NCBI GenBank assembly: GCA_903834845.1
Contig: CAILKW010000142.1
Span: 18-64,017, forward strand
Length of the DNA stretch: 64,000 bases
Source of the DNA: an uncultured Bacteroidia bacterium
Lineage (GTDB): Bacteria; Bacteroidota; Bacteroidia; Bacteroidales; Prolixibacteraceae
Direction: 5' to 3'
Part shown: positions 3,581 through 47,550 of the stretch, one piece after another
Layout: every line of letters begins with the position of its first letter
Position numbering within the stretch: the first letter of the stretch is position 1
Made by a program: the position numbers and the translations under genes
The notes under the pieces: model-generated
The model's database searches: none
Told to the model about the DNA's origin: nothing
The model's input: the letters and a program-made list of their open reading frames with translations, nothing else

Positions 3581-3745
3581 TATTTGACGTTTATAAATAT
3601 GTTTTAGATATAGTTAATTTATAACACTTTTTTACCATATTGGAGCATCATTAAAAGATTTGGGCAAAAAATGGTTCGCCTTCTCTAAAATCAACCTTGA
3701 TGTTGCAGAAATGTTAGCTAAATTGGAAAAGCCAAAATTATTTCA
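3581..3745 (+). pseudogene. ORF6N-family 3' remnant A (internally deleted)
   Basis: Matches the intact gene at about 6471-6505 and then 6728-6830 (..YHIGASLKDLGKKWFAFSKINLDVAEM.AKLEK). Shares the junction GTTAATTTATAACACTT with remnant B. Confidence 0.75.
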
Positions 3746-5502: not shown

Positions 5503-5765
5503 GAAGGCATTTTTAATGATGGACAAATATTTGACGCTTATAAATATGTTTTAGATATAGTTAATTTATAACACTTTAATGCACAACATCCTAAATCGAG
5601 GTAAAAGTGTTTTCAAAATCGCACGATAGGTTTTTGATTATTGACAATAAAACAGTTTACCATATTGGAGCATCGTTAAAAGATTTGGGCAAAAAATGGT
5701 TCGCCTTCTCTAAAATCAACCTTGATGTTGCAGAAATGATAGCTAAATTGGAAAAGCAAAAATAA
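5503..5765 (+). pseudogene. ORF6N-family 3' remnant B
   Basis: Aligns to the intact gene from about 6445 to its stop, with an internal deletion (about 6505-6640). Ends ..AKLEKQK* like the intact copy. Confidence 0.8.
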
Positions 5766-5949: not shown

Positions 5950-6837
5950 ATGAAAGACTTACAGTTATACGATAATATTAAACGTAAAATTATCACGTTG
6001 CGCGGCACTGAAACAATTTTAGATAGAGATTTATCAGTAATGTATGGGGTTGAGACACGCGCATTAAAACAAGCAGTAAAGAGAAATATTACTCGCTTTC
6101 CGGATGACTTTATGTTTGAACTTAGAACAGATGAAATTGATTTTTTGGTATCACAATCTGTGATACCATCGAAGAGTTATTTTGGAGGTTCAAAACCTTA
6201 TGCTTTTACTGAACAGGGTGTTGCAATGCTTTCTTCAGTGTTAAATTCACAAACAGCTATTCAGGTTAGTATCCAAATAATGAAAGCTTTTGTGTTTGTG
6301 AGGTCTATCCTCAATGTAAATTACAATTTTTTCAAACAATTATCTAACTTAGAACAGAGACATACTGACCTTGAAATAAGCACTAACATTCGGTTTGACG
6401 AAGTTTTTAAGGCCATTTCTTCAAAAAAAAATTTGGCTGATCAAGGCATTTTTTACGATGGACAAATATTTGACGCTTATAAATTTGTTTCAGATATAGT
6501 TAAATCAGCAAATAGCACTATTGACTTGATTGACAATTATATAGACGAAAGTGTATTAACCTTACTTTCAAAAAGAAATATAACTGTAAAAGCGACCATT
6601 TATACCAATAAAATATCGAAGCAATTAACCTTAGATTTAGAACGCTTTAATGCTCAATACCCGAAAATCGAGGTAAAAGTGTTTTCCAAATCGCACGATA
6701 GGTTTTTGATTATTGACAATAAAACAGTTTACCATATTGGAGCATCATTAAAAGATTTAGGCAGAAAATGGTTCGCCTTCGCTAAAATCAACCTCGATGT
6801 TGCAGAAATGTCGGCTAAATTGGAAAGGCAAAAATAA
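5950..6837 (+). CDS. ORF6N (KilA-N related) DNA-binding domain protein, intact copy
   Basis: ITLRGTETILDRDLSVMYGVETRALKQAVKRNITRFPDDFMFEL...YAFTEQGVAMLSSVLNSQTAIQVSIQIMKAF is the classic ORF6N signature. The C-terminal half has HDRFLIIDNKTVYHIGASLKDLG. Confidence 0.8.
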   Translation: MKDLQLYDNIKRKIITLRGTETILDRDLSVMYGVETRALKQAVKRNITRFPDDFMFELRTDEIDFLVSQSVIPSKSYFGGSKPYAFTEQGVAMLSSVLNSQTAIQVSIQIMKAFVFVRSILNVNYNFFKQLSNLEQRHTDLEISTNIRFDEVFKAISSKKNLADQGIFYDGQIFDAYKFVSDIVKSANSTIDLIDNYIDESVLTLLSKRNITVKATIYTNKISKQLTLDLERFNAQYPKIEVKVFSKSHDRFLIIDNKTVYHIGASLKDLGRKWFAFAKINLDVAEMSAKLERQK

Positions 6838-7454: not shown

Positions 7455-7664
7455 ATGACACTGACATTGGTAATTAAAAAAGGTAAAAATGGATACCTGA
7501 TTGGGCAGTTAAAAGAATTACCGGAAGTTTTTACGCAAGGACTTTCAGTTGAAGAGGTAAAAGAGAACATAGTTGATTCGTTAGAAATGTACCTCGAAGA
7601 TATGCGTGAGAAATATCAACCCGAAGGGGAAATGATACAGGAAAAGGAATTAATCTTCGCGTAA
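7455..7664 (+). CDS. hicB: HicB-family antitoxin
   Basis: 69 aa, LIGQLKELPEVFTQGLSVEEVKENIVDSLEMYLED. Lies 3 nt upstream of a HicA-like ORF. Confidence 0.7.
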   Translation: MTLTLVIKKGKNGYLIGQLKELPEVFTQGLSVEEVKENIVDSLEMYLEDMREKYQPEGEMIQEKELIFA

Positions 7665-7856: not shown

Positions 7857-8074
7857 CGAAAAACATCATTAAATACCTGCAAACTTTATCAACTTCATAG
7901 TTGAGCATTATTTAACTCTTCAAGAGTTTTTTCTTCTTTATTTACTCTTTCTCAAAAAAAAAATTCGTTTATACACAGTTTTCTCCTTTGGAGAAAAAAA
8001 CTTGAAAGGATTTCATAAGTAACTTAAATACAATTATGAGAGCATGTATTTTTTAACCAATATAATGCCAAATA

Positions 8075-8274
8075 ACCTTAGATTTAGAACGCTTTAATGC
8101 TCAATACCCGAAAATTGAGGTAAAAGTGTTTTCCAAATCGCATGATAGGTTTTTGATTATTGACAATAAAACAGTTTACCATATTGGAGCATCATTAAAA
8201 GATTTAGGCAAAAAATGGTTTGCACTCTCGAAAATCAACCTTGATGCCGCTGAGATGATAGCTAAATTAGAATA
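8075..8274 (+). pseudogene. ORF6N-family 3' remnant C
   Basis: Aligns to 6625-6837 of the intact gene (LDLERFNAQYPKIEVKVFSKSHDRFLIIDNKTVYHIGASLKDLGKKWFALSKINLDAAEMIAKLE*). It has no 5' part. Confidence 0.8.
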
Positions 8275-8345
8275 AAAACAAAAGATATTTAAAAAGGAAC
8301 ACCGATTTTGTCTAAACTAATCAAATAGATTTTTCAATTACCAAA

Positions 8346-9905
8346 ATGCAAACAATTATAAAACGCTTACCAATAGCTAAAACAGAAATTAAAGAATTAA
8401 TAGAAGGCAATTTTTGTTATGTTGATAAAACAAAATTTATAAAAGATTTGCTCGATGACGGTCATGGATATTACTTTTTATCTCGTCCACGTCGCTTTGG
8501 AAAATCTTTATTAATTGATACTATACGTGCCGCTTTTGAAGCTGAAAAAGAAATTTTCAATGGACTGTATATAGAAAATAATTGGGACTGGTCAATAAAA
8601 TATCCGGTTATTACGATTAGTTTTGGTGCCGGAACAGTTGACACTAATGATCAACTTGAAATACGACTAAATGAATTATTAAATAGAAATATTGATAATA
8701 ATAAAATAGAAATTAAAAATGTCTCTATTCCCGGCAGATTTGAAGAACTCATAAAAAAACTCTTCGATAAATTCAATTTGCCGGTAGTAATATTGATTGA
8801 CGAATACGACAAACCTATTCTTGATAATATCACCAATGAAAATGCAAATAAAATAAAAGAAGGACTAAGCAGTTTCTATTCTGTTTTAAAAGATGCAAGC
8901 AAATATCTTAAATTTGTTTTTTTAACAGGAGTTTCAAAATTCAGTAAAACAAACATTTTCAGCAAATTAAATAATATAACTGACATTTCGCTTGTTCCAA
9001 AATATGCAGATATTTGTGGTTATACACAAACCGACTTAGAAACTACCTTTGCGGATTATTTATACAATGTGGACTTGGAAAAAGTAAAAAATTGGTATGA
9101 TGGGTATAATTTTTTAGGAAGTAATTTATATAATCCGTATGACGTTTTATTGTTTTTGTGGGAAAAAAGATACCGTTGTTTTTGGTTCGAAACAGGTACA
9201 CCAACTTTTTTACTTGAACTTATAAAAAAACGAAATTACTATGTTCCCAATTTAGAAAGAATTCAAATCTCGGAATTTGAAATGGGTGAATTTGATATTA
9301 ACAATATTAAATTAGAGATCCTATTATATCAAACGGGCTATCTGACCATTGAGAAATTGGAAGAAATAAACGAAAACTATATTTATACCTTAAAAATACC
9401 CAATAAAGAAGTTAGAAAAGGACTTAACGAATATTTATTAACTGCTTTTTATGCTTCAGGAGTTAATGCTTACGAACGCACAAATGTTTCATTAATATTG
9501 AGCAAGGCATTAAACCAACATAATTTGGACGACCTAAAACTTGCATTTACAACTCTTTTTGCCGGAATACCAAATAATTGGTACACAAACAATAATATTG
9601 CTCAATACGAAGGCTTTTATTGCTCTTTATTTTATGCTTTTTTTGCTGCACTTGGTGTGGAGATAAAAAGCGAAGACACCACAAATAAGGGACGCATAGA
9701 TTTTACGATAATAACACAAACAGCTATATTTATTTTCGAAATAAAAATGAAACACATAAATAAAAAAGCTCTTGCACAAATAAGAGAACGGCAATACCAT
9801 CAAAAATATTTATCTGAAAAAAAAGATATTTATCTGATAGGTTTAGAATTTGACGAAACGGATAAAAATATTTCTACTTTTGAATATGAGAAGGTCATAG
9901 TATAA
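8346..9905 (+). CDS. AAA-ATPase-like protein with C-terminal PD-(D/E)XK (PDDEXK_9-type) domain
   Basis: N-terminus FCYVDKTKFIKDLL..YYFLSRPRRFGKSLLIDTI is the AAA-ATPase_like signature. C-terminus GRIDFTII..IFIFEIKMK gives D...E-x-K. Confidence 0.8.
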   Translation: MQTIIKRLPIAKTEIKELIEGNFCYVDKTKFIKDLLDDGHGYYFLSRPRRFGKSLLIDTIRAAFEAEKEIFNGLYIENNWDWSIKYPVITISFGAGTVDTNDQLEIRLNELLNRNIDNNKIEIKNVSIPGRFEELIKKLFDKFNLPVVILIDEYDKPILDNITNENANKIKEGLSSFYSVLKDASKYLKFVFLTGVSKFSKTNIFSKLNNITDISLVPKYADICGYTQTDLETTFADYLYNVDLEKVKNWYDGYNFLGSNLYNPYDVLLFLWEKRYRCFWFETGTPTFLLELIKKRNYYVPNLERIQISEFEMGEFDINNIKLEILLYQTGYLTIEKLEEINENYIYTLKIPNKEVRKGLNEYLLTAFYASGVNAYERTNVSLILSKALNQHNLDDLKLAFTTLFAGIPNNWYTNNNIAQYEGFYCSLFYAFFAALGVEIKSEDTTNKGRIDFTIITQTAIFIFEIKMKHINKKALAQIRERQYHQKYLSEKKDIYLIGLEFDETDKNISTFEYEKVIV

Positions 9906-9960
9906 AATATATAACAATATATTTCGATTTGGAAAGTGTAATAACTTTTTCGTTAGCATA

Positions 9961-10064
9961 AGAGAGCATCATTAAAAGATTTGGGCTAAAAATGGTTCGC
10001 CTTCTCTAAAATCAACCTTAATGTTGCAGAAATTTTATCAATATTAGAAAAACAAAACATTTAA
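9961..10064 (+). pseudogene. ORF6N-family 3' remnant D (shortest)
   Basis: GAGCATCATTAAAAGATTTGGGCTAAAAATGGTTCGCCTTCTCTAAAATCAACCTTAATGTTGCAGAAAT.. matches 6740-6815. It contains an internal stop. Confidence 0.7.
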
Positions 10065-10098: not shown

Positions 10099-11799
10099 AT
10101 GGTGCAGAACTATTCACGAAAGGAACAATGGGAAATATTGGATGCCAATGTAATGCCTTATCATTGGGAAGGTAAATCCAAATTTAACCACGACGCAAAA
10201 TTCCTAAGTTCATATTATGAGGAAATACTAATATTGGTGTCTTCTAAACTTAATGAGATTCATTGCACCAATAAAGGTCTTCGTTATTGGAGAATTTTTA
10301 TAGGGCCATGGTTGGCTTACTTTATTCAGATGCTGTTCGACAGATGGGAAAGTATTCATCATGCAATTGAAAAATAAGACTAAGGTGGAACTGTTGTATT
10401 GGAATTTGAGGAAGGCTCCTTCGTACCAAACGACATGAATGATTTTATTAAACTTTTTACTGAAGATAATTGGAATCATGAAATTTTCGGAATAATTCTT
10501 AAACAATATACAAAAACCAATTGCATTATTCAAAAACCATCGCACGTAGAATACACCGGTAGTTTATCCAAAAAACAATCAATAAAAAGATACACTAAAA
10601 AACAAACACGATCTTTTCTTTCTAAAATTGCATCAACATTTAAGAGGGATACCGATATGTTTTTAATAAACACTTATTTACCACTATATTTGGAAATATT
10701 GTTGCAGATTAAACTTGGACAGGTACCTCAGTTATGGAAATCCAACATCACACCTGTACGAACAAAACCAAATTTTAATTAACGGAATTGGGCTTTAAAG
10801 CATAATATGGATTCTCCTTTCGATGATTTTGTTAACCGTTTAATTCCAAAACATATTCCTGCAGTATTCTTAGAAGGATATAAAGCCATTGTCAAGCAAA
10901 CGGATGAATTATTGTGGCCCCAAAACCCAAAGGTTATCTACACAAGTAATGTATTATGGCATGATAGCGTTTCAATGGCATATACAGCCGAAAAAACTGA
11001 AAATGGAGCCGGACTTTTATATGGACAGCATGGCGGCTTTTACGGCTCGGCTCTTTACAGTTGGGCAGAAAGACATGAAATTGAAATAAGTGATAAGTAT
11101 TTAACATGGGGTTGGGATGAATTATTACAACCGAAAATAATTCCAACCGGTGTTTTAAAAACTGCCTCCTGGTACAATAATGCTGTTGATTTAAAAAAAA
11201 ATAAAACAAAAAAGCTCTTATTAGTACTGGTATCCACATCAATGTAAAGCTACAGAATTGATAGCGATCCTAAATCCGCAGAATTGATTCAACGTTTTGA
11301 GGAACACTTTCTATTTGTGAAATCGCTCCCAAAAACAATACAAAATCAAATCACTGTTCGGCTTCATAGAAATGAATATGGATGGTATATTGATAAACGG
11401 TGGAAAGATCAATTTTCAGATATTGTATTGGATGATGGTACTTCGAATATGGACCACCTTATGAGAAACAGCCGAATATTCGTCTATACATACAACTCAA
11501 CCGGATATTTAGAATCCTTATCTTGGAATATACCAACACTAATTTTTTGGAATTTAGATTCAAGTCCCCTGAGAGATGATGCAATGCCTTATTATAACAG
11601 GCTTAAAGAAGCAGGTATATTTCACCAAACCCCTCAATCTGCTGCTGCAAAGGTGGCTGAAATCTGGGATGTTGTACCAACATGGTGGAATCAACAGGAA
11701 ATTCAGGAGGCAAGAGAGTTATTCTGTTATCGCTTTGCACGTACCATTAGTAATCCTACGACAGTTCTAAAAAGTATTTTGCTGTCAATTAAAGAATGA
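10099..11799 (+). pseudogene. Putative polysaccharide-locus transferase (LIC12162-family-like, name from memory) inactivated by four in-frame TAA codons
   Basis: ORFs 10099..10377, 10399..10782, 10807..11247 and 11284..11799 are all in the same frame. They are separated only by TAA at 10375, 10381, 10780 and 11245, with no frameshift. Confidence 0.6.
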
Positions 11800-13624: not shown

Positions 13625-14398
13625 ATGAAAGTTCTGATCTTAGCAGGAGGCCTTGGCTCACGGCTCTCAGAAGAAACAACCCTAAGGCCAAAACCAATGG
13701 TAGAAATTGGTGGAAAACCAATTCTTTGGCACATTATGAAAATATATTCACATTTTGGGTATAACGAATTTATCATTCTGTGTGGTTACAAAGGATATAT
13801 GATCAAAGAATTTTTCTCCCATTATTTTCTTCATACATCCGATATGACAATTGACATGACAACCAATACAATTACCCATCATAATAATCATTGCGAACCA
13901 TGGAAAGTAACCCTTGTGGATACAGGGCTCGACACAATGACTGGTGGGCGTATTAAAAAGGTACGGGATTATATTGGTAACGTACCCTTTATGCTTACTT
14001 ATGGTGATGGTGTTGGAGATGTTGATATTTCTAAGCTGGTTAAATATCATCAATCTCACGGTAAAGCAATAACAATGACCGCTGTACAACCTGAAGGAAG
14101 GTATGGTTCTTTGGTTCTTAACGAAAATGAAGAGGTAACCTCATTTCAGGAAAAACCAAAGGGAGATGGTGCATGGATCAATGCAGGTTATTTTGTTTGC
14201 CAACCTGAAGTATTCGACTATATTCCAGATGGAGATCAAATTATTTTTGAACGAGAACCTTTGGAAGGTTTAGCAAGTGCCTGTCAACTTCAAGCTTATA
14301 AACATGACGGATTATGGAAACCCATGGATACCCAACGCGACAAAAGCCAATTGGAAGATTTGATTGAAAAAGGGAAAGCGCCCTGGATACGCTGGTAG
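13625..14398 (+). CDS. rfbF: Glucose-1-phosphate cytidylyltransferase
   Basis: MKVLILAGGLGSRLSEETTLRPKPMVEIGGKPILWHIMKIYS.. at 257 aa is the typical RfbF/DdhA signature and length. Confidence 0.9.
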   Translation: MKVLILAGGLGSRLSEETTLRPKPMVEIGGKPILWHIMKIYSHFGYNEFIILCGYKGYMIKEFFSHYFLHTSDMTIDMTTNTITHHNNHCEPWKVTLVDTGLDTMTGGRIKKVRDYIGNVPFMLTYGDGVGDVDISKLVKYHQSHGKAITMTAVQPEGRYGSLVLNENEEVTSFQEKPKGDGAWINAGYFVCQPEVFDYIPDGDQIIFEREPLEGLASACQLQAYKHDGLWKPMDTQRDKSQLEDLIEKGKAPWIRW

Positions 14399-14445: not shown

Positions 14446-14550
14446 CAGTGTCACACAGAAAAAAAAGCACCGTGTCACACAATGTAGTTAAAAAGCACTC
14501 AGTTAAACTCAGTGCTTTCACTGAGATACCTTGTTCAACGAACACTTAAC

Positions 14551-15627
14551 ATGGAAAATCTTTTTGATAGAATATTTACCAATCGCAAGGTTTTGATCAC
14601 AGGGCATACCGGTTTTAAAGGATCGTGGTTGTGTTTATTATTGAATAAATTGGGTGCTGATGTTTTTGGTTATGCGTTAGACCCTCCTACTAACCCTAGT
14701 TTGTTCGTGGAAGCAAAAATTAACGAAATCATGACTTCCTTTATCGGCGATATTCGTGATTACGAAAATCTATTCAAAGTCATTCAGCAAGTTCAACCTG
14801 AAATTGTTATCCACATGGCTGCGCAACCGTTGGTTAGGGAATCATACAAGAAACCTGTTGAAACCTATGCGATCAATGTGATGGGAACAGTACACTTTCT
14901 TGAAGCATGTCGGCATACAAAAAGTGTAAAGGCCATTGTAAATGTAACAACCGACAAATGTTACGCAAATAAAGAGTGGCATTGGGGTTATCGTGAAAAT
15001 GAGCCAATGGGAGGTTACGATCCTTATTCAAACAGCAAAGGATGTTCGGAGCTTGTAACTTCTTCGTACCGCAATTCGTATTTTAATCCTGCAAAATACT
15101 CCGAACATGGTGTGGCTGTCGCTTCAGCTCGTGCAGGTAATGTTATTGGAGGTGGCGATTGGGCTAATGACAGACTTATCCCAGATTTTATCCGCTCCAT
15201 ATCCCAAGGTGAAAAAGTAAAAATCCGCAGTCCTTTTGCAATTCGTCCATGGCAACATGTATTAGAACCTTTAACAGGCTACCTTACTTTAGCTGCAAAA
15301 CTATTTACCGAAGGCGTAAAATATGCCGAGGGGTGGAACTTCGGACCCGATGATGAAGATGCCAAAAACGTGGAGTGGATCACATTAACAATCTGCGAAC
15401 TTTGGGGTGAGGGTGCCTCTTTCAGCATCGACAAAGACCCTCAGCTCCACGAGGCCAATTACCTGAAACTAGACTGTTCAAAATCTAAAGCCGAACTGGA
15501 TTGGACTCCCAAATGGAACATCCAAACAACTTTACAATCCATCGTAGAGTGGAACAAAGCTTATTTGCGTGGTGAAAACATGCGTACAGTATCGGAATAC
15601 CAAATAAATCAATATTATAACAATTAA
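14551..15627 (+). CDS. rfbG: CDP-glucose 4,6-dehydratase
   Basis: VLITGHTGFKGSWL Rossmann start, YSNSKGCSE (YxxxK) and about 358 aa. Start at ATG 14551 (MENLFDR). Confidence 0.9.
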   Translation: MENLFDRIFTNRKVLITGHTGFKGSWLCLLLNKLGADVFGYALDPPTNPSLFVEAKINEIMTSFIGDIRDYENLFKVIQQVQPEIVIHMAAQPLVRESYKKPVETYAINVMGTVHFLEACRHTKSVKAIVNVTTDKCYANKEWHWGYRENEPMGGYDPYSNSKGCSELVTSSYRNSYFNPAKYSEHGVAVASARAGNVIGGGDWANDRLIPDFIRSISQGEKVKIRSPFAIRPWQHVLEPLTGYLTLAAKLFTEGVKYAEGWNFGPDDEDAKNVEWITLTICELWGEGASFSIDKDPQLHEANYLKLDCSKSKAELDWTPKWNIQTTLQSIVEWNKAYLRGENMRTVSEYQINQYYNN

Positions 15628-15686: not shown

Positions 15687-15941
15687 ATGTTGGCAATAAA
15701 AGCAAATTATCATAATGGCATAATTACTTTTCTCGAAGCCATGCCAGAGAAAGTAAGGAATGCACGGTTGACCATTGTAGTGGAACCGGAGGAACAGGAC
15801 AATAGTTTTATCCCATCACAAGATTTTAAAAGTACACAAATTGATAGTGAAGTTGAATTTGAAGCCATGGGACTGAGTGCGCTTTTTGATGACGAAAACG
15901 ATAAAAACATTAATTGGGAGGATTATTTTGGACTCAAATAA
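15687..15941 (+). CDS. Small antitoxin-like protein (DUF104-like N-terminus)
   Basis: 84 aa, MLAIKANYHNGIITFLEAMPEKVRNARLTIVVEPE resembles the i.A.Y.NG.i..LE.. antitoxin family, with an acidic tail. Lies upstream of and overlapping a MazF-like module. Confidence 0.5.
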   Translation: MLAIKANYHNGIITFLEAMPEKVRNARLTIVVEPEEQDNSFIPSQDFKSTQIDSEVEFEAMGLSALFDDENDKNINWEDYFGLK

Positions 15942-16284
15942 ATTCAACATCGGCGAAATTGTCTTGATCGATTTCCCCTATTCTAATCTAAAAGGCTCTA
16001 AATATAGGCCTGCTGTTATCATTGGAGTAACTGACATTCAGAACGATTTAATCGTTGCATTTGTTACATCAGAAATTGAAAATTATAGTTGGAGCGAATA
16101 TGCTGTTAAGTTCAGCCAGGCACATTTACAATCTGGTACAATTAAACAAGAAAGTATCATACGCTGCGACAAAATGATCACCATCAGTCCGCAACGTATT
16201 TCACTCAGAAAAGTTGGGACATTAAAGAAAACAAAAACTGCAGAAGTTCTCCGGAAATTGTCTCGAATCAGTGTCAATGGGGTA
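15877..16284 (+). CDS. MazF/PemK-like toxin module with no stop codon, continuing in frame into rfbH
   Basis: NIGEIVLIDFPYSNLKGSKYRPAVIIGV... is the MazF/PemK N-terminal signature. Possible starts are ATG 15877, ATG 15889 and TTG 15928. The frame runs uninterrupted into ATG 16285. Confidence 0.6.
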
Positions 16285-17550
16285 ATGGAAACAATTCATG
16301 CCAAACAAGACTTTATCCCTGGCAAATCACGGGTTAATTATGCCGGACGTGTATTCGATGAGAAAGAAATCAACAACGCTGTCAATGCTTCTCTTGATTT
16401 CTGGCTCACTGAAGGACGTTTCTCTGAAGAATTCTCCGAAAAGATTGCAGAATTTATAGGTGTGGAACATGTATTATTGACCAATTCGGGTTCTTCAGCC
16501 AATTTGCTTGCGTTCTCGGCACTGACTTCCGAAAAACTTGGCGACAAACGATTACGTCCGGGAGATGAAGTGGTATCAGTTGCAGCCGGGTTTCCTGCTA
16601 CCGTTACGCCGATTATCCAAAATGGTTTGGTTCCTGTGTTTGTTGATGTTGAGATACCTACCTACAATATTGATGTAGAGATGATGCGTAAAGCGATCAC
16701 GCTTAAAACCAGATGTATCTTTATTGCACATACCTTGGGGAATCCATTCAATATCGATGCCGTAATGCAATTGGCCAAAGAACACGATTTGTGGGTAATC
16801 GAAGACAATTGCGATGCATTTGGAAGTGAGTACAACGGTAAGAAGACGGGATCTTTTGCTCATCTTTCAACCATATCCTTCTATCCTGCCCATCATATCA
16901 CCACAGGCGAAGGAGGTGCAATTTGTACAAATGATCCTCAATTGGCTCAATTAGTTCGTGCTTTCCGCGACTGGGGACGTGATTGCTATTGTGCAGGCGG
17001 TGAAAACAACACTTGCGGCAAACGTTTCTCGCAGTTGTTTGGAAACCTTCCTTTCGGATTCGATCATAAATATGTTTATTCCGAAATTGGTTATAACCTA
17101 AAGATGACAGATATACAAGCTGCAATTGGTGTAGAACAAATCGAAAAACTACCATATTTCTGCGAACGCCGGAAAGCAAATTTTCAGGAATGGGAACGAA
17201 TTTTCACGAAGTATCATGATTACTTTATTTTGCCGAAAGCAACCGAACGAGCCGATCCGGCATGGTTTGCATTTATTGTAACTCTTAAGGAAACCGCTCC
17301 TTTTAAACGTGATGATTTAACAGGTCACCTAAATGCAAAGCTAATTGAAACCCGTAATCTGTTTGCAGGCAACATCACCAAACAACCAGGCTTCATGGGC
17401 AAAAACTGGCGCATTGCCGATCATTTGAATAATACTGACTACATAATGAATAACACTTTCTTCCTTGGTACATACCCTGGACTAACGAAAGATATGTTTG
17501 ATTATGCTGAAGGCGTACTCGATTCATTTGTTCAAGATTTCACGAATTAG
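16285..17550 (+). CDS. rfbH: CDP-6-deoxy-D-xylo-4-hexulose 3-dehydrase (E1, RfbH/DdhC)
   Basis: From METIHAKQDFIPGKSRVNYAGRVFDEKEINNAVNASLDFWLTEGRF.. for about 421 aa. DegT-type PLP/PMP fold with the RfbH-typical N-terminus. It is part of the composite ORF 15877..17550. Confidence 0.85.
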   Translation: METIHAKQDFIPGKSRVNYAGRVFDEKEINNAVNASLDFWLTEGRFSEEFSEKIAEFIGVEHVLLTNSGSSANLLAFSALTSEKLGDKRLRPGDEVVSVAAGFPATVTPIIQNGLVPVFVDVEIPTYNIDVEMMRKAITLKTRCIFIAHTLGNPFNIDAVMQLAKEHDLWVIEDNCDAFGSEYNGKKTGSFAHLSTISFYPAHHITTGEGGAICTNDPQLAQLVRAFRDWGRDCYCAGGENNTCGKRFSQLFGNLPFGFDHKYVYSEIGYNLKMTDIQAAIGVEQIEKLPYFCERRKANFQEWERIFTKYHDYFILPKATERADPAWFAFIVTLKETAPFKRDDLTGHLNAKLIETRNLFAGNITKQPGFMGKNWRIADHLNNTDYIMNNTFFLGTYPGLTKDMFDYAEGVLDSFVQDFTN

Positions 17551-17570
17551 GACGAATTACACGAATCGAA

Positions 17571-17945
17571 ATGCCAGAGATTATCTACAAAGAAGAAAGC
17601 TACAAGATCATAGGGGCATGTATGGAAGTCCATAAAAAGCTTGGTTGTGGGTTTCTTGAAAGTGTATATTCTGAGGCACTCGAAATAGAATTTAAGAAGT
17701 CCGAAATACCCTACGAGCGTGAAAAAAAATTGCCCGTATTTTATGGAGACGTTCCGCTTAAAAAGTATTTCAAAGCCGACTTCGTTTGTTATAATTCAAT
17801 CATCCTTGAACTGAAGGCAACAAAGTTTATTATTGAAGCTGATCACCGTCAAACGGTTAATAATGTAAAAGCCACCAAATTTCAACTTGGTTTGCTTATC
17901 AATTTCGGTACTCCATCATTGACCTATAAACGAATCGTCAATTAG
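17571..17945 (+). CDS. GxxExxY protein (PD-(D/E)XK-like small nuclease-fold family)
   Basis: 124 aa with GCGFLESVY (G-x-x-E-x-x-Y) and D...ELK (ADFVCYNSIILELKA). Flanked on both sides by ACGAATT/AATTCGT words. Confidence 0.8.
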   Translation: MPEIIYKEESYKIIGACMEVHKKLGCGFLESVYSEALEIEFKKSEIPYEREKKLPVFYGDVPLKKYFKADFVCYNSIILELKATKFIIEADHRQTVNNVKATKFQLGLLINFGTPSLTYKRIVN

Positions 17946-17978
17946 TCTAATTCGTGTTCGTGTTATTCGTTTAAATTC

Positions 17979-18671
17979 ATGAAATCAATGCTACAAAAAA
18001 AATATAAATCAGCTGTTGTATCCGTAATAAATCCATTCTCAGGTATCTATACTTTGGAAATTAAATCCTTGGGAAACAAATTCAAATACTCGCCTGGCCA
18101 ATTTCTTCACATTGCGATTGATTCAGATTACGATGGTACCAGCCAATGGCCCGATTCCCGATGTTTCTCGATGCAAAGCAATCCCGACGAAGAAACCATC
18201 CGGATTACTTATGCGGTAAAGGGATCATTTACCAAACAGATGGAACAAAACTTTAAAGTAGGTTCCGAAGTCTGGTTGAAACTACCTTATGGCGATTTGT
18301 TTTCCCAGCCACACAACAAAATTAATACTGTATTTATTGCTGGCGGCACAGGCATCACCCCGTTCCTCTCCCTTTTTACACACGAATCTTTCAACGAATA
18401 CCTCAACCCAAAAATTTACCTCGGGTTTCGTTCCCAGTCTTACAACATATATCAGGATGAACTCGTCAGTTCGAGAAATTCGTCAAAATTCGTGAAATTG
18501 TATAACGAGGACACCGATGGAATTATTGACATCCAAAGCATCTTCAACGAGAATGGCCCGGAACCCAATTATTTTATCTCCGGACCACCGGCAATGATTA
18601 AAGCCTTCAAAAACACGCTGATCGGTAAAAAAGTTCCAGCAGGAAATATACTTACCGATGATTGGGAGTAA
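17979..18671 (+). CDS. FNR-like FAD/NAD(P)-binding oxidoreductase, candidate E3 reductase for RfbH (lacks a ferredoxin domain)
   Basis: 230 aa. FLHIAIDS..RCFSM (FAD-binding RxxS-like) and VFIAGGTGITPFLS (NAD-binding). Sits directly after rfbH. Confidence 0.7.
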   Translation: MKSMLQKKYKSAVVSVINPFSGIYTLEIKSLGNKFKYSPGQFLHIAIDSDYDGTSQWPDSRCFSMQSNPDEETIRITYAVKGSFTKQMEQNFKVGSEVWLKLPYGDLFSQPHNKINTVFIAGGTGITPFLSLFTHESFNEYLNPKIYLGFRSQSYNIYQDELVSSRNSSKFVKLYNEDTDGIIDIQSIFNENGPEPNYFISGPPAMIKAFKNTLIGKKVPAGNILTDDWE

Positions 18672-18747
18672 CATTCGTGAAATTCATCAAAGTTCATTGA
18701 TTTTTTTTCCCTTGATAAGGGCAACAATTCTCAATTTATTATTTCAC

Positions 18748-18755
18748 TAACTTTG
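18748..18755 (+). promoter_or_regulatory. Bacteroidota -7 promoter-like motif TAnnTTTG
   Basis: TAACTTTG lies 22 nt upstream of ATG 18777. The motif is short and the DNA is AT-rich, so a chance match is quite possible. Confidence 0.25.
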
Positions 18756-18776
18756 TAAAACAACAATGAAACCAGA

Positions 18777-19097
18777 ATGACGAGCAGTGACAGAGAAATA
18801 TTAAGCCAAAAACTGATTTCATGCAAAAGCTTTTGGTCTTTTAAAATACCACAGGAAATCCCTGATGATATTTTAATTGAAAAAACTCTGATATACCTTG
18901 ATCTGGTGGATATTAATGTATTGTTTAAACTATTTTCATCAAAAAAGATAAAACATATTTGGCGGTCCCGTGTCGTGATTCAGGACGATTATTACCATAC
19001 GCTAAATAAACTGCTTGCATGGATGTATTTTGAAATAAAAAACCCAGACCGTTACATAAAAATAACAATTCGTAACCACATTAACCATCTTTCATGA
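18777..19097 (+). CDS. Small protein upstream of an AbiEii-type NTase, putative cognate antitoxin
   Basis: 106 aa. SFWSFKIPQEIPDDILIEKTLIYLDLVDINVLFKLF resembles the LFWDvd..ld...fIIeRvL.yG family that I recall upstream of such NTases. The stop overlaps the next start (ATGA). Confidence 0.45.
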   Translation: MTSSDREILSQKLISCKSFWSFKIPQEIPDDILIEKTLIYLDLVDINVLFKLFSSKKIKHIWRSRVVIQDDYYHTLNKLLAWMYFEIKNPDRYIKITIRNHINHLS

Positions 19098-19741
19098 CGG
19101 CCTTAGCACCTAACACTGGTAAACTTTTCGATAAAGTCGCCGCTCTGGAATGTATAAAGCCTTATTTCCTGGTGGGAGGTACCGCTCTTTCTCTGCAACT
19201 AGATACCCGTCTTAGCGAAGATTTGGACTTCATGAACTGGAAGACACAGAAAAGGCAAAAACAAGAGGTTGATTGGTTTGCTATTGAAAAAGAATTATCA
19301 ACAATAGGAACTATTGAAGCCCACGATATTTGGGATTTTAATCACGTTGAATTTTTGGTTGCCGGAGTCAAATTCTCATTTTACAATTCCATGAAATCCT
19401 CTCCGATTGCAGCTCCGGTTTACTTAAAAGACAATTTACAACTTGCCGATATTGAAGCAATCGGTGCAATGAAAATGGAAGTAATGTTGCGCAGAAGCAA
19501 TTTTCGCGATTATTACGATATCTATGCTATACTTCAACATGGAATAGATTTTAAAAAGCTGGTTGATTTATCATTAAATTATTCGGGGCACATTTTAACA
19601 ACCAAAAATCTACTTGCTATACTAATCAATAGTTCACGTTTTAATATTGATCAAGGATTTGAACTGTTAAACCCAAAATATAAGGTAGGCCCTGCCGAAA
19701 TTGAGGCTTATCTGAAAATAAAGATTAAAGCATCATTTTGA
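19094..19741 (+). CDS. AbiEii/AbiGii-family nucleotidyltransferase toxin-like protein
   Basis: YFLVGGTALSLQLDTRLSEDLDFM is the AbiEii (DUF1814) N-terminal signature. 215 aa. Confidence 0.7.
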   Translation: MTALAPNTGKLFDKVAALECIKPYFLVGGTALSLQLDTRLSEDLDFMNWKTQKRQKQEVDWFAIEKELSTIGTIEAHDIWDFNHVEFLVAGVKFSFYNSMKSSPIAAPVYLKDNLQLADIEAIGAMKMEVMLRRSNFRDYYDIYAILQHGIDFKKLVDLSLNYSGHILTTKNLLAILINSSRFNIDQGFELLNPKYKVGPAEIEAYLKIKIKASF

Positions 19742-19784
19742 TTTGTAAAAATATATTACCTGGGTACAAATACTGGTAGTATAG

Positions 19785-19918
19785 AGATTTTTCATAGCAA
19801 GGCATCTGCTATCAACTACTTTATCTACGGCCCTCCGGCAATGATTAAAGCCTTTAAAAACACGCTGATCGGTAAAAAAGTTCCATCAGAAAATATTCTG
19901 ACCGACGATTGGGAGTAA
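19785..19918 (+). pseudogene. Reductase 3' remnant 1 (copy of the end of 17979..18671)
   Basis: ..NYFIYGPPAMIKAFKNTLIGKKVPSENILTDDWE* compares with the intact ..NYFISGPPAMIKAFKNTLIGKKVPAGNILTDDWE*. It has no 5' part. Confidence 0.85.
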
Positions 19919-19976
19919 CTTTCGAGTAATTCGTCTAAATTCGTGAAATCCGCAAAAATGTAATTCGTATTTTCTA

Positions 19977-20990
19977 ATGATTAATTCTGTACACACAAAT
20001 AATTTTGGGCCTTTAACTGATTTACAGTGGAATAAATTGGGGAATATTAACTTGATATTAGGCCCTAACAGTTGTGGAAAAACATTCTTGCTCAAAGCAT
20101 TGTACAGTGCAATCCGCACACTCGAAGATTACCGAAGGGGTGATGATCAGCGGACTGCCTCCGAAATCTTGCAAGAAAAATTATATTGGACTTTCCAATC
20201 CGATAAAATCGGAGATATAGTAACTAAAGGAGCTGAAACGCCCCTTTCATTTAAAATGCAAATTGACAACCACGATTTTCGATATTCATTTGGACGCGAT
20301 ACTGTGAAACAGATCTCTGAATTGGAAAACCATAATCCAAAGCGTGAAAGCAACTCCATATTCCTACCCGCTAAAGAAGTCTTGTCTATTCACCATATCA
20401 TCCTGAAGTCCAGAGAAATTGACAAAGTATTTGGATTTGACGATACCTATCTCGACTTGGCAAGGGCTATAAGGCAGTCACCGAAAAAAGGAAAAAACTT
20501 TGATGAATTTGCAAGGTCTCGGCAGAAATTAGAGGAAATGATTGGTGGCAAAATTGAATTTGATGAATTAACAGGCAAATGGCTTTTCAAAAAAGGCAAT
20601 GCAAAATTTACAATTGGCTCAACTGCTGAAGGGATAAAAAAAATTGCGATTGTTGACACGTTATTAGGAAACCGATATCTTGATGACAAATCGGTTGTAT
20701 TTATTGATGAACCCGAATCTGCCTTGCATCCTGATGCAATTGGCACATTGCTTGATATTGTGGCTCTTCTGGCCGAAAGGGGAATTCAGTTTTTTATGGC
20801 AAGTCACTCCTATTTTGTAGTCAAGAAACTTCTACTCATTGCATTGGAAAAGAACTTGTCCATCCCTGTAATTAGTTTTCAGGAAAATAGGTGGAATATG
20901 GCAGATCTAAGAGAAGGAATGCCATCGAATTCAATTGTCCAGGCCTCAATCGACCTCTACATGAAAGAGGTTGAAATTCAAACTACCTGA
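19977..20990 (+). CDS. ABC/SMC-like P-loop ATPase (AAA_21-like)
   Basis: Walker A LILGPNSCGKTF, Walker B VVFIDEPESALHP and H-loop-like MASHS. 337 aa with no transmembrane or transporter partner. Confidence 0.75.
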   Translation: MINSVHTNNFGPLTDLQWNKLGNINLILGPNSCGKTFLLKALYSAIRTLEDYRRGDDQRTASEILQEKLYWTFQSDKIGDIVTKGAETPLSFKMQIDNHDFRYSFGRDTVKQISELENHNPKRESNSIFLPAKEVLSIHHIILKSREIDKVFGFDDTYLDLARAIRQSPKKGKNFDEFARSRQKLEEMIGGKIEFDELTGKWLFKKGNAKFTIGSTAEGIKKIAIVDTLLGNRYLDDKSVVFIDEPESALHPDAIGTLLDIVALLAERGIQFFMASHSYFVVKKLLLIALEKNLSIPVISFQENRWNMADLREGMPSNSIVQASIDLYMKEVEIQTT

Positions 20991-20992
20991 TC

Positions 20993-21502
20993 ATGGTAAC
21001 AGTAGTAGAATCGGGAATGACTTTTGGTCCTTTCCATGAAGATCAATTTTTTTATATAGAAAAATGTATTGTTTACCGGGCAATTCAAGACCAGGTAAAA
21101 ATGGTCGAATTTGTTTTACATAAACCGAATGGAGTTGATGGACAAATATGGTTGATTGAGGCGAAACAAAGCTCACCTCAACCTAAAAATCAAGCAGATT
21201 GGGAGTTTTATTTGGGTGAACTAAAAGAAAAATTTGAAAATGGATTAAGCCTCTTTCTTGCTTTGTGTTTGAATAGGTATTCCGATCCGGATTTTCACGA
21301 AGCAATAAGAACTGTTGATATGGGGAACATACAATTCAAAATTACTTTAGTTATAAAAGGTCATAAAATCGAATGGTTACCTCCTCTTAAAGATGCACTT
21401 CAACAGAGACTTTTACCCCTTTGCAAATCCTTAAATCTTACACCCAACCCCGTGTTGGTAGTTAACGATGAAATGGCACGCGCGAAAGGATTAATCACTT
21501 AA
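20993..21502 (+). CDS. Uncharacterised 169-aa partner of the ATPase, possible PD-(D/E)XK-like fold
   Basis: Starts 2 nt after the ATPase stop. MVEFVLHKPNGVDGQIWLIEAKQS gives a D/E ... E-x-K arrangement. I recognise no family. Confidence 0.5.
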   Translation: MVTVVESGMTFGPFHEDQFFYIEKCIVYRAIQDQVKMVEFVLHKPNGVDGQIWLIEAKQSSPQPKNQADWEFYLGELKEKFENGLSLFLALCLNRYSDPDFHEAIRTVDMGNIQFKITLVIKGHKIEWLPPLKDALQQRLLPLCKSLNLTPNPVLVVNDEMARAKGLIT

Positions 21503-21552
21503 TTCGTGCAATTCGTGCAATTCGTTTTAATTCGTGTAATTCGTATTTTATA
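21503..21552. repeat. AATTCGT word array
   Basis: AATTCGTGCAATTCGTGCAATTCGTTTTAATTCGTGTAATTCGTATTTTATAAC carries five phased words. The same 3' junction (..GTAATTCGTATTTTATAACAAAACAAATAC) recurs at 22684-22712. Confidence 0.8.
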
Positions 21553-21947
21553 ACAAAACAAATACTGTATTTATTGCTGGTGGCACAGGTATCACCCCTT
21601 TCCTCTCGCTCTTTACCCACGAATCCTTCAACGACTATATAAAGCCAAAGATCTATTTAGGTTTCAGATCTAAGGAATATAACATCTATCAGGCTGAACT
21701 TGATCGAATGATACAACTTCGTAAAGAATCATCGGTCCCTGAGCGCGAAGCAGTCGAAGGGAAATTTGTGAAATCCTACATACAAGAAAGCGATGGTGTT
21801 ATAGATATAGAGGAAATCTTTCTTGACAACGGTATTCATTCGAACTACTTTATCTCCGGCCCTCCTGCCATGATCAAGAACTTTAAGCAGACTCTTCTTT
21901 CAAATGGAGTACCGACAAGAAATGTTCTAACCGACGATTGGGAGTAA
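21553..21947 (+). pseudogene. Reductase 3' remnant 2 (about the C-terminal half)
   Basis: The open frame reads NTVFIAGGTGITPFLSLFTHESFNDYIKPKIYLGFRS..NYFISGPPAMIKNFKQTLLSNGVPTRNVLTDDWE*. It has no start codon before M at 21708. It corresponds to intact 18330-18671. Confidence 0.85.
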
Positions 21948-22038
21948 ATTCGTGAAATTCCTGCCTACGGTAGGCAGACGTTTTGATTCGTGTAATCCGT
22001 ATTTACTAAATATGCGTATCTTAGCAAAAAAAAATGAT

Positions 22039-22245
22039 ATGACAGATGTTCAATTATATAAAAGGTTACAAAATCTCAAACCTTCTTTAAAAGCAGAGGT
22101 TTATGACTTTGTCGATTTTCTTTTGACCAAACAAGAGAAAGATATTAAACTTGTGAAACCTCAGTTTGGGTGCGCAAAAGGCAGGTTTAAAATGGCTCCT
22201 GATTTTGATGCACCACTAGATGATTTAAAAGAATATATGTACTAA
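22039..22245 (+). CDS. DUF2281-like antitoxin (VapB-type partner)
   Basis: MTDVQLYKRLQNLKPSLKAEVYDFVDFLLTKQ...GCAKGRFKMAPDFDAPLDDLKEYMY. The DFDaPL tail is typical. The stop overlaps the PIN gene start. Confidence 0.65.
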   Translation: MTDVQLYKRLQNLKPSLKAEVYDFVDFLLTKQEKDIKLVKPQFGCAKGRFKMAPDFDAPLDDLKEYMY

Positions 22246-22628
22246 TGGATATTTTACTGGATACACATACATTCATTTGGTTCTTTAATGGCGATGAACA
22301 ATTGTCTTTTAAAGCTAAAAAGCTTATAGAAGATTCAAAAATCAGAAAATTTGTAAGTATTGCATCAATTTGGGAGGTTGCAATTAAAATTGGGCTTAAA
22401 AAATTGTTTTTCGATGGTAACGTAAGTGAAGTAGCTGAACTAATTGAAAAAAATGGATTTCGAATATTGCAAATTTCAGTTGGTCACGCTGTTGCTTATG
22501 AAGCTTTGGAGTTGGTTCATCGTGATCCATTTGACAGGATTCTTGTAGCGCAGGGAATGGTAGAAAAGATGACAATAATTACGAAAGACGATAATATTAA
22601 AAAATACATAGTTAAAACAAATTGGTAA
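22245..22628 (+). CDS. vapC: PIN-domain VapC-family toxin
   Basis: MDILLDTHTFIWF.. at 127 aa, with DPFDRILVAQ near the C-terminus. Classic VapC layout. Confidence 0.8.
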   Translation: MDILLDTHTFIWFFNGDEQLSFKAKKLIEDSKIRKFVSIASIWEVAIKIGLKKLFFDGNVSEVAELIEKNGFRILQISVGHAVAYEALELVHRDPFDRILVAQGMVEKMTIITKDDNIKKYIVKTNW

Positions 22629-22707
22629 TAATTCAATTCTAATCAGCCTTTGCAAAAATTCGTGCCATTCGTTTTAATTCTTGTAATTCGTATTTTATAA
22701 CAAAACA

Positions 22708-23099
22708 AATACAGTCTTTATAGCCCGTGGAACAGGCATCACACCATTCCTCTCCCTTTTCACACACGAATCTTTCAACGAATACCTCAACCCGAAAATT
22801 TACTTTGGTTTCATTCAAAAGAATATAACATCTACCAGGAAGAACTGAACCGTATGATGGCAATTCGTACCATTCTTACAAATTTGGGTAATTCGAGTGA
22901 ATGTAATTCGTTTATATCCTTGAAATCTTACAATCAGGATACTGACGGAGTTATTGATATTCAGAAAATCCTAAATGAAAATGGTAAAAACTCGAACTAT
23001 TTTATCTCTGGTCCACCAATAATGATAAAATCTTTCAAGAAAACGTTGATTACCAACGGGATTCCATCTCAAAATGTGCTAATAGTTAACTGGGAATAA
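22708..23099 (+). pseudogene. Reductase 3' remnant 3 (frameshifted)
   Basis: NTVFIARGTGITPFLSLFTHESFNEYLNPKIYFGF.. then a frame break, then ..NYFISGPPIMIKSFKKTLITNGIPSQNVLIVNWE* (ORF 22854..23099). It begins at the same gene position as remnant 2. Confidence 0.85.
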
Positions 23100-23140
23100 A
23101 ATTAATACTAATCGTTTTAAATTCGTGCAATTCGCATTTT

Positions 23141-24064
23141 ATGAGGATTTTATTAACCGGTGCCACTGGGTTTATAGGTTCGAACATAGCCAGAGAACTA
23201 TTGGGAAATGGATACCAGGTTTCTGCAACGCATAGAACTACCTCTTCATTTGAAAAATGTTCTAGCATTAAAGACAAAATAAATTGGATTAACACAGATC
23301 TTCCGGATTGGAAAAAACAAGTAAAAGATGCAAAACCTGATCAATTAATTCATATTGCCTGGGGAGGTATTGAAGCAAAAGATAGGAACAATTGGGATAT
23401 TCAAATTAAAAATTTCTGGTTCTCTAAAGAATTATTCGATATCGCCAAAGAATATGAAATAAAAAAAGTAATTGGAATAGGTTCACAGGCAGAATATGGA
23501 GTATATGGATACCCGGTTAATGAGGAAACAGTGCCAAAGCCACAAGATGCCTACGGATCTACAAAAACATTAACTTGCAATTACCTTCGAAATTTATATG
23601 AAGGTTACCAAACAGAGTGGTACTGGATCCGTATTTTTTCTGTTTTTGGAGAAGGCGAAAACTCTGACTGGTTAATACCCACTGCTATATCAAAACTATT
23701 AAGAAATGAGTCAATCCAACTTACACCATGCGAACAGAAATATAATTACCTGTATATTGGTGATTTTGTGAAAGAAATTTATTCAGTAATTAATTGTTCA
23801 CAAAATAGATCAGGAATCTATAACCTATGTAATAATGAATCTATTGAATTAAAAGATTTATTGATTCAAATTTCAGAAATTATGAATGTATCTTCAGACC
23901 TACTTGAATTTGGGAAAATCCGGTATCGTAACAGCCAAAATATGTTAATTCATGGTGATAATTCAAAATTTAGAAAAACATTTTGTAGGGATCTTAACAA
24001 TTCAGGAAGTTTGAAAAAAGGATTATTAAATTCTATCCGTTATTTTAAAAATAAAGAATCTTGA
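23141..24064 (+). CDS. NAD-dependent epimerase/dehydratase-family SDR (candidate 4-keto or branched-chain reductase, YerF/RfbS/RfbJ-like)
   Basis: MRILLTGATGFIGSNIA Rossmann start and AYGSTK (YxxxK). 307 aa. Confidence 0.75.
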   Translation: MRILLTGATGFIGSNIARELLGNGYQVSATHRTTSSFEKCSSIKDKINWINTDLPDWKKQVKDAKPDQLIHIAWGGIEAKDRNNWDIQIKNFWFSKELFDIAKEYEIKKVIGIGSQAEYGVYGYPVNEETVPKPQDAYGSTKTLTCNYLRNLYEGYQTEWYWIRIFSVFGEGENSDWLIPTAISKLLRNESIQLTPCEQKYNYLYIGDFVKEIYSVINCSQNRSGIYNLCNNESIELKDLLIQISEIMNVSSDLLEFGKIRYRNSQNMLIHGDNSKFRKTFCRDLNNSGSLKKGLLNSIRYFKNKES

Positions 24065-46731: not shown

Positions 46732-46754
46732 ACTAAACTAATCTACTTACCATA

Positions 46755-47465: not shown

Positions 47466-47482
47466 ATTTGTTACAACAAAAT

Positions 47483-47516: not shown

Positions 47517-47550
47517 TTTATACTTTTTAGTATTAAATTTAGATTTATCC

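Follow-up and report, generated by a model that had tools for sequence, protein, structure and literature searches.

Arrays in which a complete gene is followed by truncated copies of its own 3' end have been described for rhs and cdiA, where each displaced end is accompanied by small accessory genes (Jackson et al. 2009, PMC2935791). These arrays are thought to be built without an integrase, by incoming alleles whose recombination in a conserved region of the gene displaces the old end downstream (PMC2935791). The 64,000-nucleotide (nt) stretch of DNA analysed here (the window), from an uncultured Bacteroidia bacterium of the Prolixibacteraceae (assembly GCA_903834845.1, contig CAILKW010000142.1, positions 18 to 64,017), carries an array of this kind in a polysaccharide-synthesis operon. 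Downstream of an intact flavin reductase gene (17979-18671, plus strand), three cargo modules of toxin-antitoxin (TA), abortive-infection and defence type are interleaved with as many truncated copies of the reductase 3' end, and the spacers are arrays of short words. The locus works like a cassette array, but lacks the features that define an integron or an integrase-borne island, and it is a new variant among the known recombination-built arrays.

Two other systems are close to this layout. The minimal mobile elements of Neisseria are cassettes located between conserved genes and exchanged by transformation and homologous recombination (PMC3787668, PMC3082526). Campbell-type insertion-duplication by a single crossover, as seen in transformation merodiploids, duplicates the homology segment directly around the insert (Johnston et al. 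2013, PMC3784515). It is known from laboratory constructs and transient duplications, and not as a natural, recurrent stacking of defence modules in a biosynthetic operon.

The reductase is an FNR-type protein of 230 amino acids (aa) with Pfam NAD_binding_1 and FAD_binding_8 domains, presumed to be the E3-like partner of RfbH. The initial annotation, made from the letters alone, had proposed a serial 3'-end duplication of this gene forming a multi-slot cassette array, with the intact reductase followed by three units of cargo and remnant. All of these elements are present, with similarity far beyond chance (tblastn E values of about 1e-17 to 1e-48), and the proposal is supported. The first remnant (rem1; 19742-19918, plus strand; aa ~171-230; tblastn E 4e-17) is in frame from 19742, immediately after the AbiEii stop codon, and not from 19785 as first given. 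About one third of it, at the 5' side, is decayed; over the last 130 nt, identity to the intact reductase is 87%, and the last 36 codons contain 15 nt differences, nine of them at third positions (dN, the non-synonymous divergence, 0.08; dS, the synonymous divergence, 0.50). The second remnant (rem2; 21549-21947, plus strand; aa 112-230) lacks a start codon, but its frame is open and every invariant residue is kept. It is 63% identical to aa 112-230 of the intact protein over 21549-21944 (tblastn E 1.5e-48), with 17 of the 19 differences in codons 116-150 at third positions and a dN/dS of 0.11-0.15 against intact genes. The third remnant (rem3; 22696-23099, plus strand; aa 112-230) is the most decayed of the three. 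Its two tblastn stretches (22696-22812, aa 112-150, 90%, E 4e-17; 22758-23096, aa 133-230, 47%, E 4e-24) sit in different frames, which reveals a 1-nt frameshift near 22812, and IVN stands in place of the invariant TDD; 10 of the 11 differences in its first 30-35 codons are at third positions. Thus, within the window, decay rises with distance from the gene from rem2, which is intact, to rem3, which is frameshifted and without TDD.

All three remnants end in the same ..NYFI(S/Y)GPPxMIKxFKxTL..P..N.L...WE tail followed by the stop codon, as had been noticed, and the tails encode the conserved NAD-binding end of the reductase with its invariant residues, apart from the changed TDD of rem3. The common junction reported ahead of rem2 (21538-21571) and rem3 (22685-22718) measures 34 nt and is 94% identical between the two; the remnants are there as first described, with the homology of rem2 and rem3 beginning ~12 nt further upstream than the codon named, within ..AACAAAACAAATAC. 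The same gene order was found in 15 contigs with an identical reductase, and the six of them compared at the DNA level are 99.94-100% identical to the window. Because independent contigs carry an identical layout, the array structure is real and fixed in this population, and an assembly artefact is rejected.

The cargo modules, all on the plus strand, are small. The first comprises a 106-aa open reading frame (ORF) with no family match (18777-19097) and an AbiEii nucleotidyltransferase (19094-19741; Pfam AbiEii E 9.7e-16, also hit by the PADLOC AbiEii models). The second is the HEC-02 candidate defence pair, formed by an AAA_21/AAA_15 ATPase (19977-20990; PADLOC HEC-02A E 3.5e-159) and its 169-aa partner (20993-21502; PADLOC HEC-02B E 1.9e-57). 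The third consists of a VapB-type (DUF2281) antitoxin and a PIN toxin (22039-22628; NF050009 TA_VapB E 8.5e-22, Pfam PIN E 1.3e-17).

In ~100 loci, a full-length homologue of the reductase is found at this place in the operon, and 93 of these genes were aligned. Tail remnants of the reductase also occur in other Bacteroidales, in at least seven sources, and the cargo differs wherever the flanks are readable. Locus L001 contains two remnants, with a YoeB TA module, AbiE, an epimerase and an ATPase as cargo, and L026 contains four, with DUF3990, a PIN TA module, an MNT/HEPN-type pair, AbiE and further nucleotidyltransferase-like pairs. Two or three remnants are present in L023, one each in L024/L025 and L093, and one short remnant in L002, while L056 and L073 have remnants with ParE/RelE-like TA modules and L073 also has an insertion sequence (IS). 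The survey of homologous loci suggested by the initial annotation therefore recovered different cargo behind the same gene, in L001, L002, L026, L056, L073 and L093 as well as in the window. Taken over the window and the related loci, the cargo types are AbiE, HEC-02, VapBC, YoeB, MNT/HEPN, PIN and DUF3990 modules with no site-specific recombinase of their own; the IS transposase inserted into an array of L073 is the sole mobility gene found among the cargo loci. In ~50 of the 56 loci with enough downstream sequence, a biosynthetic gene lies directly 3' of the reductase without any cargo, and the short spacer is often itself made of two to four words. When TA or defence cargo does follow the reductase, at least one remnant is present too, in every locus with sequence enough to judge.

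The two ends of the remnants behave differently. The right end is always the stop codon, with a word array next to it in this operon (at least 16 remnants, in the window and the loci named above). The left end varies over at least seven distinct breakpoints, from codon 112 to ~213, with no single fixed att core. Codon 112 was used five times in four sources (twice in the window and in L001, L023 and L056), codons ~117-121 in L024/L025 and L073, and codon ~123 in L001 and L093, which have a hairpin-bearing junction in common. Breakpoints at codons ~167-171, at the word array within the coding sequence (CDS), were found for rem1 and in L026; those further downstream lie at codon ~197 (twice in L026), codons ~206-208 (L002 and L026) and codon ~213 (L023). 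Between the stop codon of a cargo gene and the remnant that follows it, there are often 0-25 nt.

The remnants each derive from a different, recently functional allele and are not local copies in decay. Frame-intact remnants compared with intact genes give a dN/dS of 0.10-0.17 at a dS of 0.8-1.6, against a dN/dS of 0.08-0.18 between intact genes; this low ratio, together with the third-position bias, indicates an origin from formerly functional alleles. Neighbour-joining placed the remnants in between the intact genes and not as a monophyletic group, so that a single monophyletic mobile module is rejected. On the question of donors raised by the initial annotation, the arms thus come from different alleles. 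The L001 remnants group with the L001 gene (97% bootstrap), the L024 remnant groups with the gene of the same metagenome-assembled genome (86%), and rem2 clusters weakly with the gene of L002. An open frame with all invariant residues was preserved in rem2 and in one remnant each of L001 (L001_r1) and L024 (L024_r), and one L023 remnant (L023_r1) has a nonsense codon.

Comparison of related loci also provides evidence for the movement of single cassettes. The ParE/RelE-like cassettes of L056 and L073 share 94.8% identity across 580 nt, whereas the reductase tails are only 75-77% identical, so that this cassette was transferred between lineages. The shared stretch begins with the last word of the left array, includes the TA pair and extends into the right array; identity drops inside the left array, and the right end is the IS inserted in the L073 array. 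This IS (L073 ~8430-10000), sitting in the right-hand word array of the TA cassette, encodes a DDE transposase (8560-9894) between inverted ends GTCGAACGTGA/TCACGTTCGAC. Likewise, the MNT/HEPN pairs of L026 and L023 are 82% similar, compared with 70-72% for the reductases. In L078 and L080, an HEC-02 ATPase (69-71% aa identity) lies directly after the intact reductase, collinear with rem1, array and HEC-02 in the window. This fits an ancestor with the reductase followed by HEC-02, into which an AbiE unit with a new tail was inserted at the array within the CDS.

The same layout is present at other genes, both in the window and elsewhere. One region of L001 (13299-16642) holds a thiamine pyrophosphate (TPP)-enzyme gene, an MNT/HEPN pair downstream of it and then a repeat of the last ~48 codons of the enzyme gene, immediately adjoining the start of the next gene. 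In the window, a DUF3990 module and a Schlafen/AlbA_2 gene come after a HisH-like GATase gene (54795-55409); they are followed by a copy of the GATase tail (58170-58337; aa 148-203, 57%) directly before a HisF-like gene. The PseB/CapD-like gene (62182-63198) presents the mirror image of the tail case, since two copies of its 5' head lie upstream (59586-59705 and 60828-60971), bracketing an AlbA_2 gene and a HigB/HTH pair. An N-terminal GT4 half (46746-47456), 86% identical to aa 5-241 of the complete GT4 gene (48955-50202), precedes cargo at 47620-48767 and then the full gene (region 46746-53903); an AlbA_2 gene was also observed between two GT4 paralogues in this region. Finally, an ORF6N gene (5950-6837) has four tail copies (3633-3737, 5595-5762, 8015-8284 and 9957-10055). 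Direct repeats of a homology segment around an insert, with one intact copy and one truncated copy that keeps the terminus, were found at all these genes, and none of these other remnant sites overlaps an AATTCGT match. Upstream heads and downstream tails are the two viable outcomes of integration through a homology segment at a gene end.

The reading that best accounts for these data, to which we would give a probability of roughly one half, is that the array grew by accretion through recombination, in a series of insertion-duplications with tail copies and word arrays as portable homology and with no dedicated integrase. TA, abortive-infection and defence modules would have been inserted repeatedly just 3' of the reductase in this CDP-dideoxyhexose operon. 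The incoming DNA would consist of cargo plus a stretch homologous to the reductase 3' end, from another allele. Recombination within the tail would then create a complete hybrid reductase upstream and leave the old tail, truncated, downstream of the new cargo; repetition would yield reductase, cargo, tail, cargo, tail and so on, the unit nearest the gene probably being the newest. Every remnant would keep the gene terminus, with a variable inner breakpoint, because only events that leave an intact gene survive. The word arrays would provide a second short shared tract for cargo swaps between lineages, and the rem1-type breakpoint would arise because one such array is embedded in the reductase CDS. 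The exchange itself was probably a homologous one, by a single crossover or by two-arm pairing. At the molecular level, a circle may have integrated by a single crossover, a tail-flanked fragment may have engaged in two-arm pairing, or template switching may have taken place. The order of insertion deduced from this scheme is likewise probable. The junction at codon 112, where a word array is joined to the tail behind differing upstream cargo and in divergent remnants, may have arisen from microhomology between the A-rich leader that follows the arrays (..TTTACAAAAACAA..; ..ACAAAAC..) and codons 112-116 (CACAACAAAACAAATAC), or else from a site-directed activity. A word array at codon 112 of some allele, as the source of this junction, was considered and rejected, as no intact gene has an indel there.

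The locus resembles each of the described systems in part. As in rhs/cdiA arrays, a full-length gene is followed by truncated 3' copies sharing a conserved stretch. In contrast to the variable toxin tips and immunity genes of those arrays, the tails found here belong to a conserved reductase domain, the genes between them are unrelated TA and defence modules, and the breakpoints are scattered over the last 120 codons. As in minimal mobile elements, different cassettes without mobility genes occupy one site between conserved genes in different lineages, and exchange depends on the flanking sequence that they have in common. However, those elements have neither partial duplicates of the flanking gene nor multi-slot arrays, both of which occur here, and in this locus short word arrays also bound the exchanged stretch. 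In Campbell-type insertion, an intact gene copy is kept if the segment includes the gene end, which matches the tail and head remnants in the window.

Several observations weigh against this accretion by recombination. The exact junction between array and codon 112 recurs in four sources, and the boundaries of the L056/L073 exchange lie in arrays and not in tails; a site-directed process explains both at least as well. The mosaic predicted for the intact reductase was looked for by comparing its 5' and 3' parts, for which even the closest relatives (62-83% identical per segment, ~70-83% at the nt level) are too distant. Viral contigs and plasmids yielded no unit of tail and cargo: the viral contig scan gave no reductase tails, and the plasmid searches gave only distant oxidoreductases and unrelated ATPase or TA matches. 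Moreover, no excision product, circle or strain-level presence/absence variant was seen, all 15 contigs with an identical reductase sharing the array. To our knowledge, natural transformation or another route of entry for homologous DNA is not documented for these uncultured Bacteroidales. The scheme also does not account for the first tail-bearing cassette.

The word arrays are the second repeated element of the locus. The motif AATTCGT occurs 39 times in the window against 14 expected (a 2.8-fold excess; none of 100 shuffles reached 39), with its copies clustered at 14.4-23.1 kb. In this operon segment, the spaces between genes are taken up by AATTCGTG arrays, whose sequence is also that of the inverted flanks of the cassette with the GxxExxY gene of subfamily A; other arrays are made of AACTTTGTG or AATCTGTG. 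On the plus strand, the spacer after rem1 (19919-19976) ends in GTAATTCGTATTTTCTA directly before an ATG. A five-word array (21500-21560) leads into the codon-112 junction, termed class I (..GTAATTCGTATTTTATAACAAAACA joined to AATAC), which is also present at rem3 and in L001, L023 and L056. The array after rem2 (21948-22038) holds a G+C hairpin (CTGCCTACGGTAGGCAG, 21961-21977), the next one (22656-22707; repeats D3, D5 and D6) contains the second copy of the class I junction, and the last one occupies 23100-23140. A standard array (TTCGTGCAATTCGTTTTAATTCGTGTAATTCGTA) is found in many loci at 88-94% identity and in both orientations. Short G+C-rich hairpins were likewise observed in some arrays of L001 (~7540-7567) and L093 (8629-8692), with the form TCCGCC..GGCGGA besides that of the window, and a conserved motif, TAATTAGCTTCGCTGA(A/T)CTTCG, adjoins arrays in L022, L024, L026 and L073. 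Other arrays of 9-10-nt words (TCCACAGATT, TATTAGTGGT and AACACAGAT) adjoin other small cassettes in the window (513-540, 47482-47515 and 63736-63753), one of them preceding a second, truncated GxxExxY gene at the window end.

A further array lies within the reductase CDS itself (18467-18504, plus strand; repeat family D3) and is translated in frame (..SSRNSSKFVKLY..). It encodes a loop of variable length, at which the rem1-type remnants start, and all indels among the 93 aligned intact reductases fall in codons 162-174. The peptide ..RNSCNSS..KFVK.. corresponds to CGTAATTCGTGTAATTCG..AAATTCGTGAAA, with the words translated in frame. This length-variable surface loop was observed in ~90 homologues, and other word families take its place elsewhere, such as CTCTGTG/CTTTGTG in L023.

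The GxxExxY gene of the window (17571-17945, plus strand; TIGR04256 E 2.3e-40), which encodes a PD-(D/E)XK protein of subfamily A (..EESYKIIGACMEVHKKLG..), stands directly upstream of the reductase. It is flanked by arrays in inverted orientation, on the minus strand at 17536-17566 and on the plus strand at 17946-17978 (inverted repeats I5, I6 and I8). The word family co-varies with the GxxExxY subfamily (window 17536-17978; L001, L003, L005, L010, L013, L017 and L027-L093). ACGAAT and/or ATTCGT words are present in the flanks of 14 of the 16 subfamily A members scored, and ACGAAT is the word on the upstream side wherever this side scored, with one member excepted. Subfamily B is associated with ACTTTG, ACTTAG, AATCTG or ACACAG words and never with ATTCGT.

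These associations form the basis of the first alternative, a site-directed cassette system of integron- or homing-like type, in which an enzyme acting in trans would target the word arrays for the insertion or exchange of cassettes. This activity could reside in the neighbouring GxxExxY nuclease or in a recombinase encoded at an unlinked locus. Pseudo-sites within the reductase, namely ..ACAAAAC.. (codon 112) and the array inside the CDS, would occasionally be used as well, and tail remnants would arise there during break repair. In its favour, arrays lie on both sides of cargo 2 and 3 (cargo 1 is preceded only by a degenerate array and followed immediately by rem1), and the inverted arrays around the GxxExxY-A gene resemble terminal repeats. 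The in-frame words of the reductase coincide exactly with its indel sites, and the resolvable L056/L073 exchange ends inside the left array and at the IS within the right one, which argues for some role of the words. The position-specific insertion envisaged by the initial annotation is in part upheld by the array/codon-112 junction, identical in its five occurrences, but the at least six other breakpoints, which lie away from arrays, do not conform to it. Furthermore, Pfam scans found no integrase or recombinase domain in 43 ORFs (all cargo, ten ORFs at 1.3-13.6 kb and selected ORFs at 40-63 kb; an unlinked gene is possible). Many loci have arrays, and some of them also a GxxExxY-A gene, yet no cargo, and the remnant-plus-cargo layout recurs at other genes without any AATTCGT match. 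GxxExxY proteins are not known to act on such words: full-text literature searches for the word sequences returned nothing, and searches on GxxExxY or intervening-sequence proteins in O-antigen clusters returned nothing relevant. A site-directed system is thus considered unlikely, although not negligible.

As in chromosomal integrons and clusters of attC sites lacking an integrase (CALINs), a one-directional, TA-rich cassette array with a repeated separator is present, its cargo differs between relatives, and a gene of a nuclease family (GxxExxY) is located near the array head. In contrast to integrons, no IntI was found, the separators are words and gene-end copies without a foldable attC, and the cassettes usually have two genes. 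When six inter-cassette spacers were folded as single-stranded DNA, z scores ranged from -1.6 to +0.9 against shuffles and no attC-like structure was detected, the small hairpin at 21961-21977 being the only foldable element; the spacers are tandem direct 9-10-nt words and not imperfect palindromes. The integron analogy of the initial annotation, with AATTCGT as part of the attC, is therefore not supported in that form, since no integrase was found, the arrays are unstructured and the layout occurs elsewhere without the motif. A more speculative version, also doubtful in our view, is an integrase-free counterpart of integrons in Bacteroidales. Here, the 9-10-nt arrays would be recognition or homology sites of GxxExxY nucleases, one word per subfamily, and array breaks would drive the capture and exchange of TA and defence cassettes in surface-polysaccharide operons, with remnants and in-frame loops as scars.

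Integrase-borne islands at gene 3' ends, such as those at tRNA and tmRNA genes, the staphylococcal cassette chromosome (SCC) at rlmH and tycheposons, stack in tandem, encode a recombinase and duplicate a short fixed att core. The units described here are similarly bounded by a duplicate of the 3' end of a target gene that stays intact. Unlike in those islands, the duplicates measure 50-400 nt and have variable inner ends, and no recombinase was found.

The second alternative is local tandem duplication of the segment between the reductase interior and the intergenic array, by slippage, unequal crossing-over or template switching, followed by capture of cargo at the neutral joint. Addictive TA modules would then block the collapse of the repeat, and later allelic replacement of the intact gene would cause the differences between gene and remnants. 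The layout is indeed a direct repeat with one intact and one truncated copy, the cargo consists mostly of TA or abortive-infection modules, and the resemblance of the A-rich leader to codons 112-116 would suit a microhomology joint. L023 adds a tandem arrangement of a short tail remnant, an array and a codon-112 remnant, the latter 100% identical to the other reductase tail of its contig. This contig (JBBIHV010000109.1, L019/L023) has a reductase tail (aa 131-230) at its start and part of a reductase (aa 4-174) at its end; its two identical tail copies could be due to circular mis-assembly or to a very recent duplication. On the other hand, the divergence of the remnants from the resident gene (dS 0.5-1.6, with strong third-position bias) would call for one more allelic replacement per remnant, rem2 clusters weakly with the gene of another genome, and a cassette has clearly moved between lineages. 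Local duplication is judged unlikely, to about the same degree as a site-directed system.

Finally, it is very improbable that the remnants are retained as useful sequences, whether as gene-conversion donors for the reductase C-terminal domain, translated NAD-binding fragments or downstream expression signals: rem2, L001_r1 and L024_r do have open frames with all invariant residues and low dN/dS, and the TPP-enzyme tail of L001 does abut the next gene's start, but the head of rem2 is without a start codon, rem3 contains a frameshift and L023_r1 a nonsense codon, decay is seen in the 5' part of rem1, most related genomes have no remnants, and a recent origin from functional alleles accounts for the low dN/dS.

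The array set is embedded in a conserved backbone. The window is a long polysaccharide-synthesis region, all in one direction, from a Bacteroidales-like genome. Upstream of the reductase, on the plus strand, lie an rfbF-like gene (13625-14398), an rfbG-like gene (14512-15627), an antitoxin and PemK module (15687-16270; Pfam PemK_toxin) that runs in frame into RfbH, and RfbH itself (ending at 17550; NCBIfam RfbH E 6.7e-199). The next backbone gene after the array set encodes an SDR epimerase (23141-24064, plus strand), which is the gene directly 3' of the reductase in most related genomes. The order rfbF, rfbG, rfbH, reductase and then SDR epimerase or TPP enzyme was found in ~25 genome loci and 80 metagenome loci, whose named hosts are mostly Bacteroidales, Prolixibacteraceae and relatives. 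The PemK/MazF-like toxin domain and RfbH share one reading frame without an intervening stop, at 15877-17550 in the window, 7201-8799 in L002 and 4444-6045 in L073; this fusion is seen in several genomes and called by gene callers as a single product of 532-553 aa. Directly upstream of the operon, the window also contains four tandem small paralogues of the LIC12162 family (10099-11799; Pfam PF27859). An Rfam search of 12-25 kb, at E values up to 1, revealed no known RNA family, and a promoter and terminator scan gave counts near the shuffle expectation with a sigma-70 consensus that is not applicable to Bacteroidota.

The locus offers a concrete and recurrent route by which defence and TA modules accumulate within a biosynthetic operon that looks essential, while the operon stays unbroken. 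With each arrival, one copy of the neighbouring gene is kept whole and the old gene end remains as a datable scar. Such scars can be used to spot hotspots of this kind by sequence alone, give the order of acquisition events and preserve allele fragments of the lineages that exchanged DNA. The analysis also links the unexplained GxxExxY genes and word arrays, common in the polysaccharide loci of Bacteroidota, to cassette boundaries. If an enzyme acts on the words, they would be part of a new cassette-capture system; if none does, the locus would be a clear natural example of cassette mobility driven by homology only.

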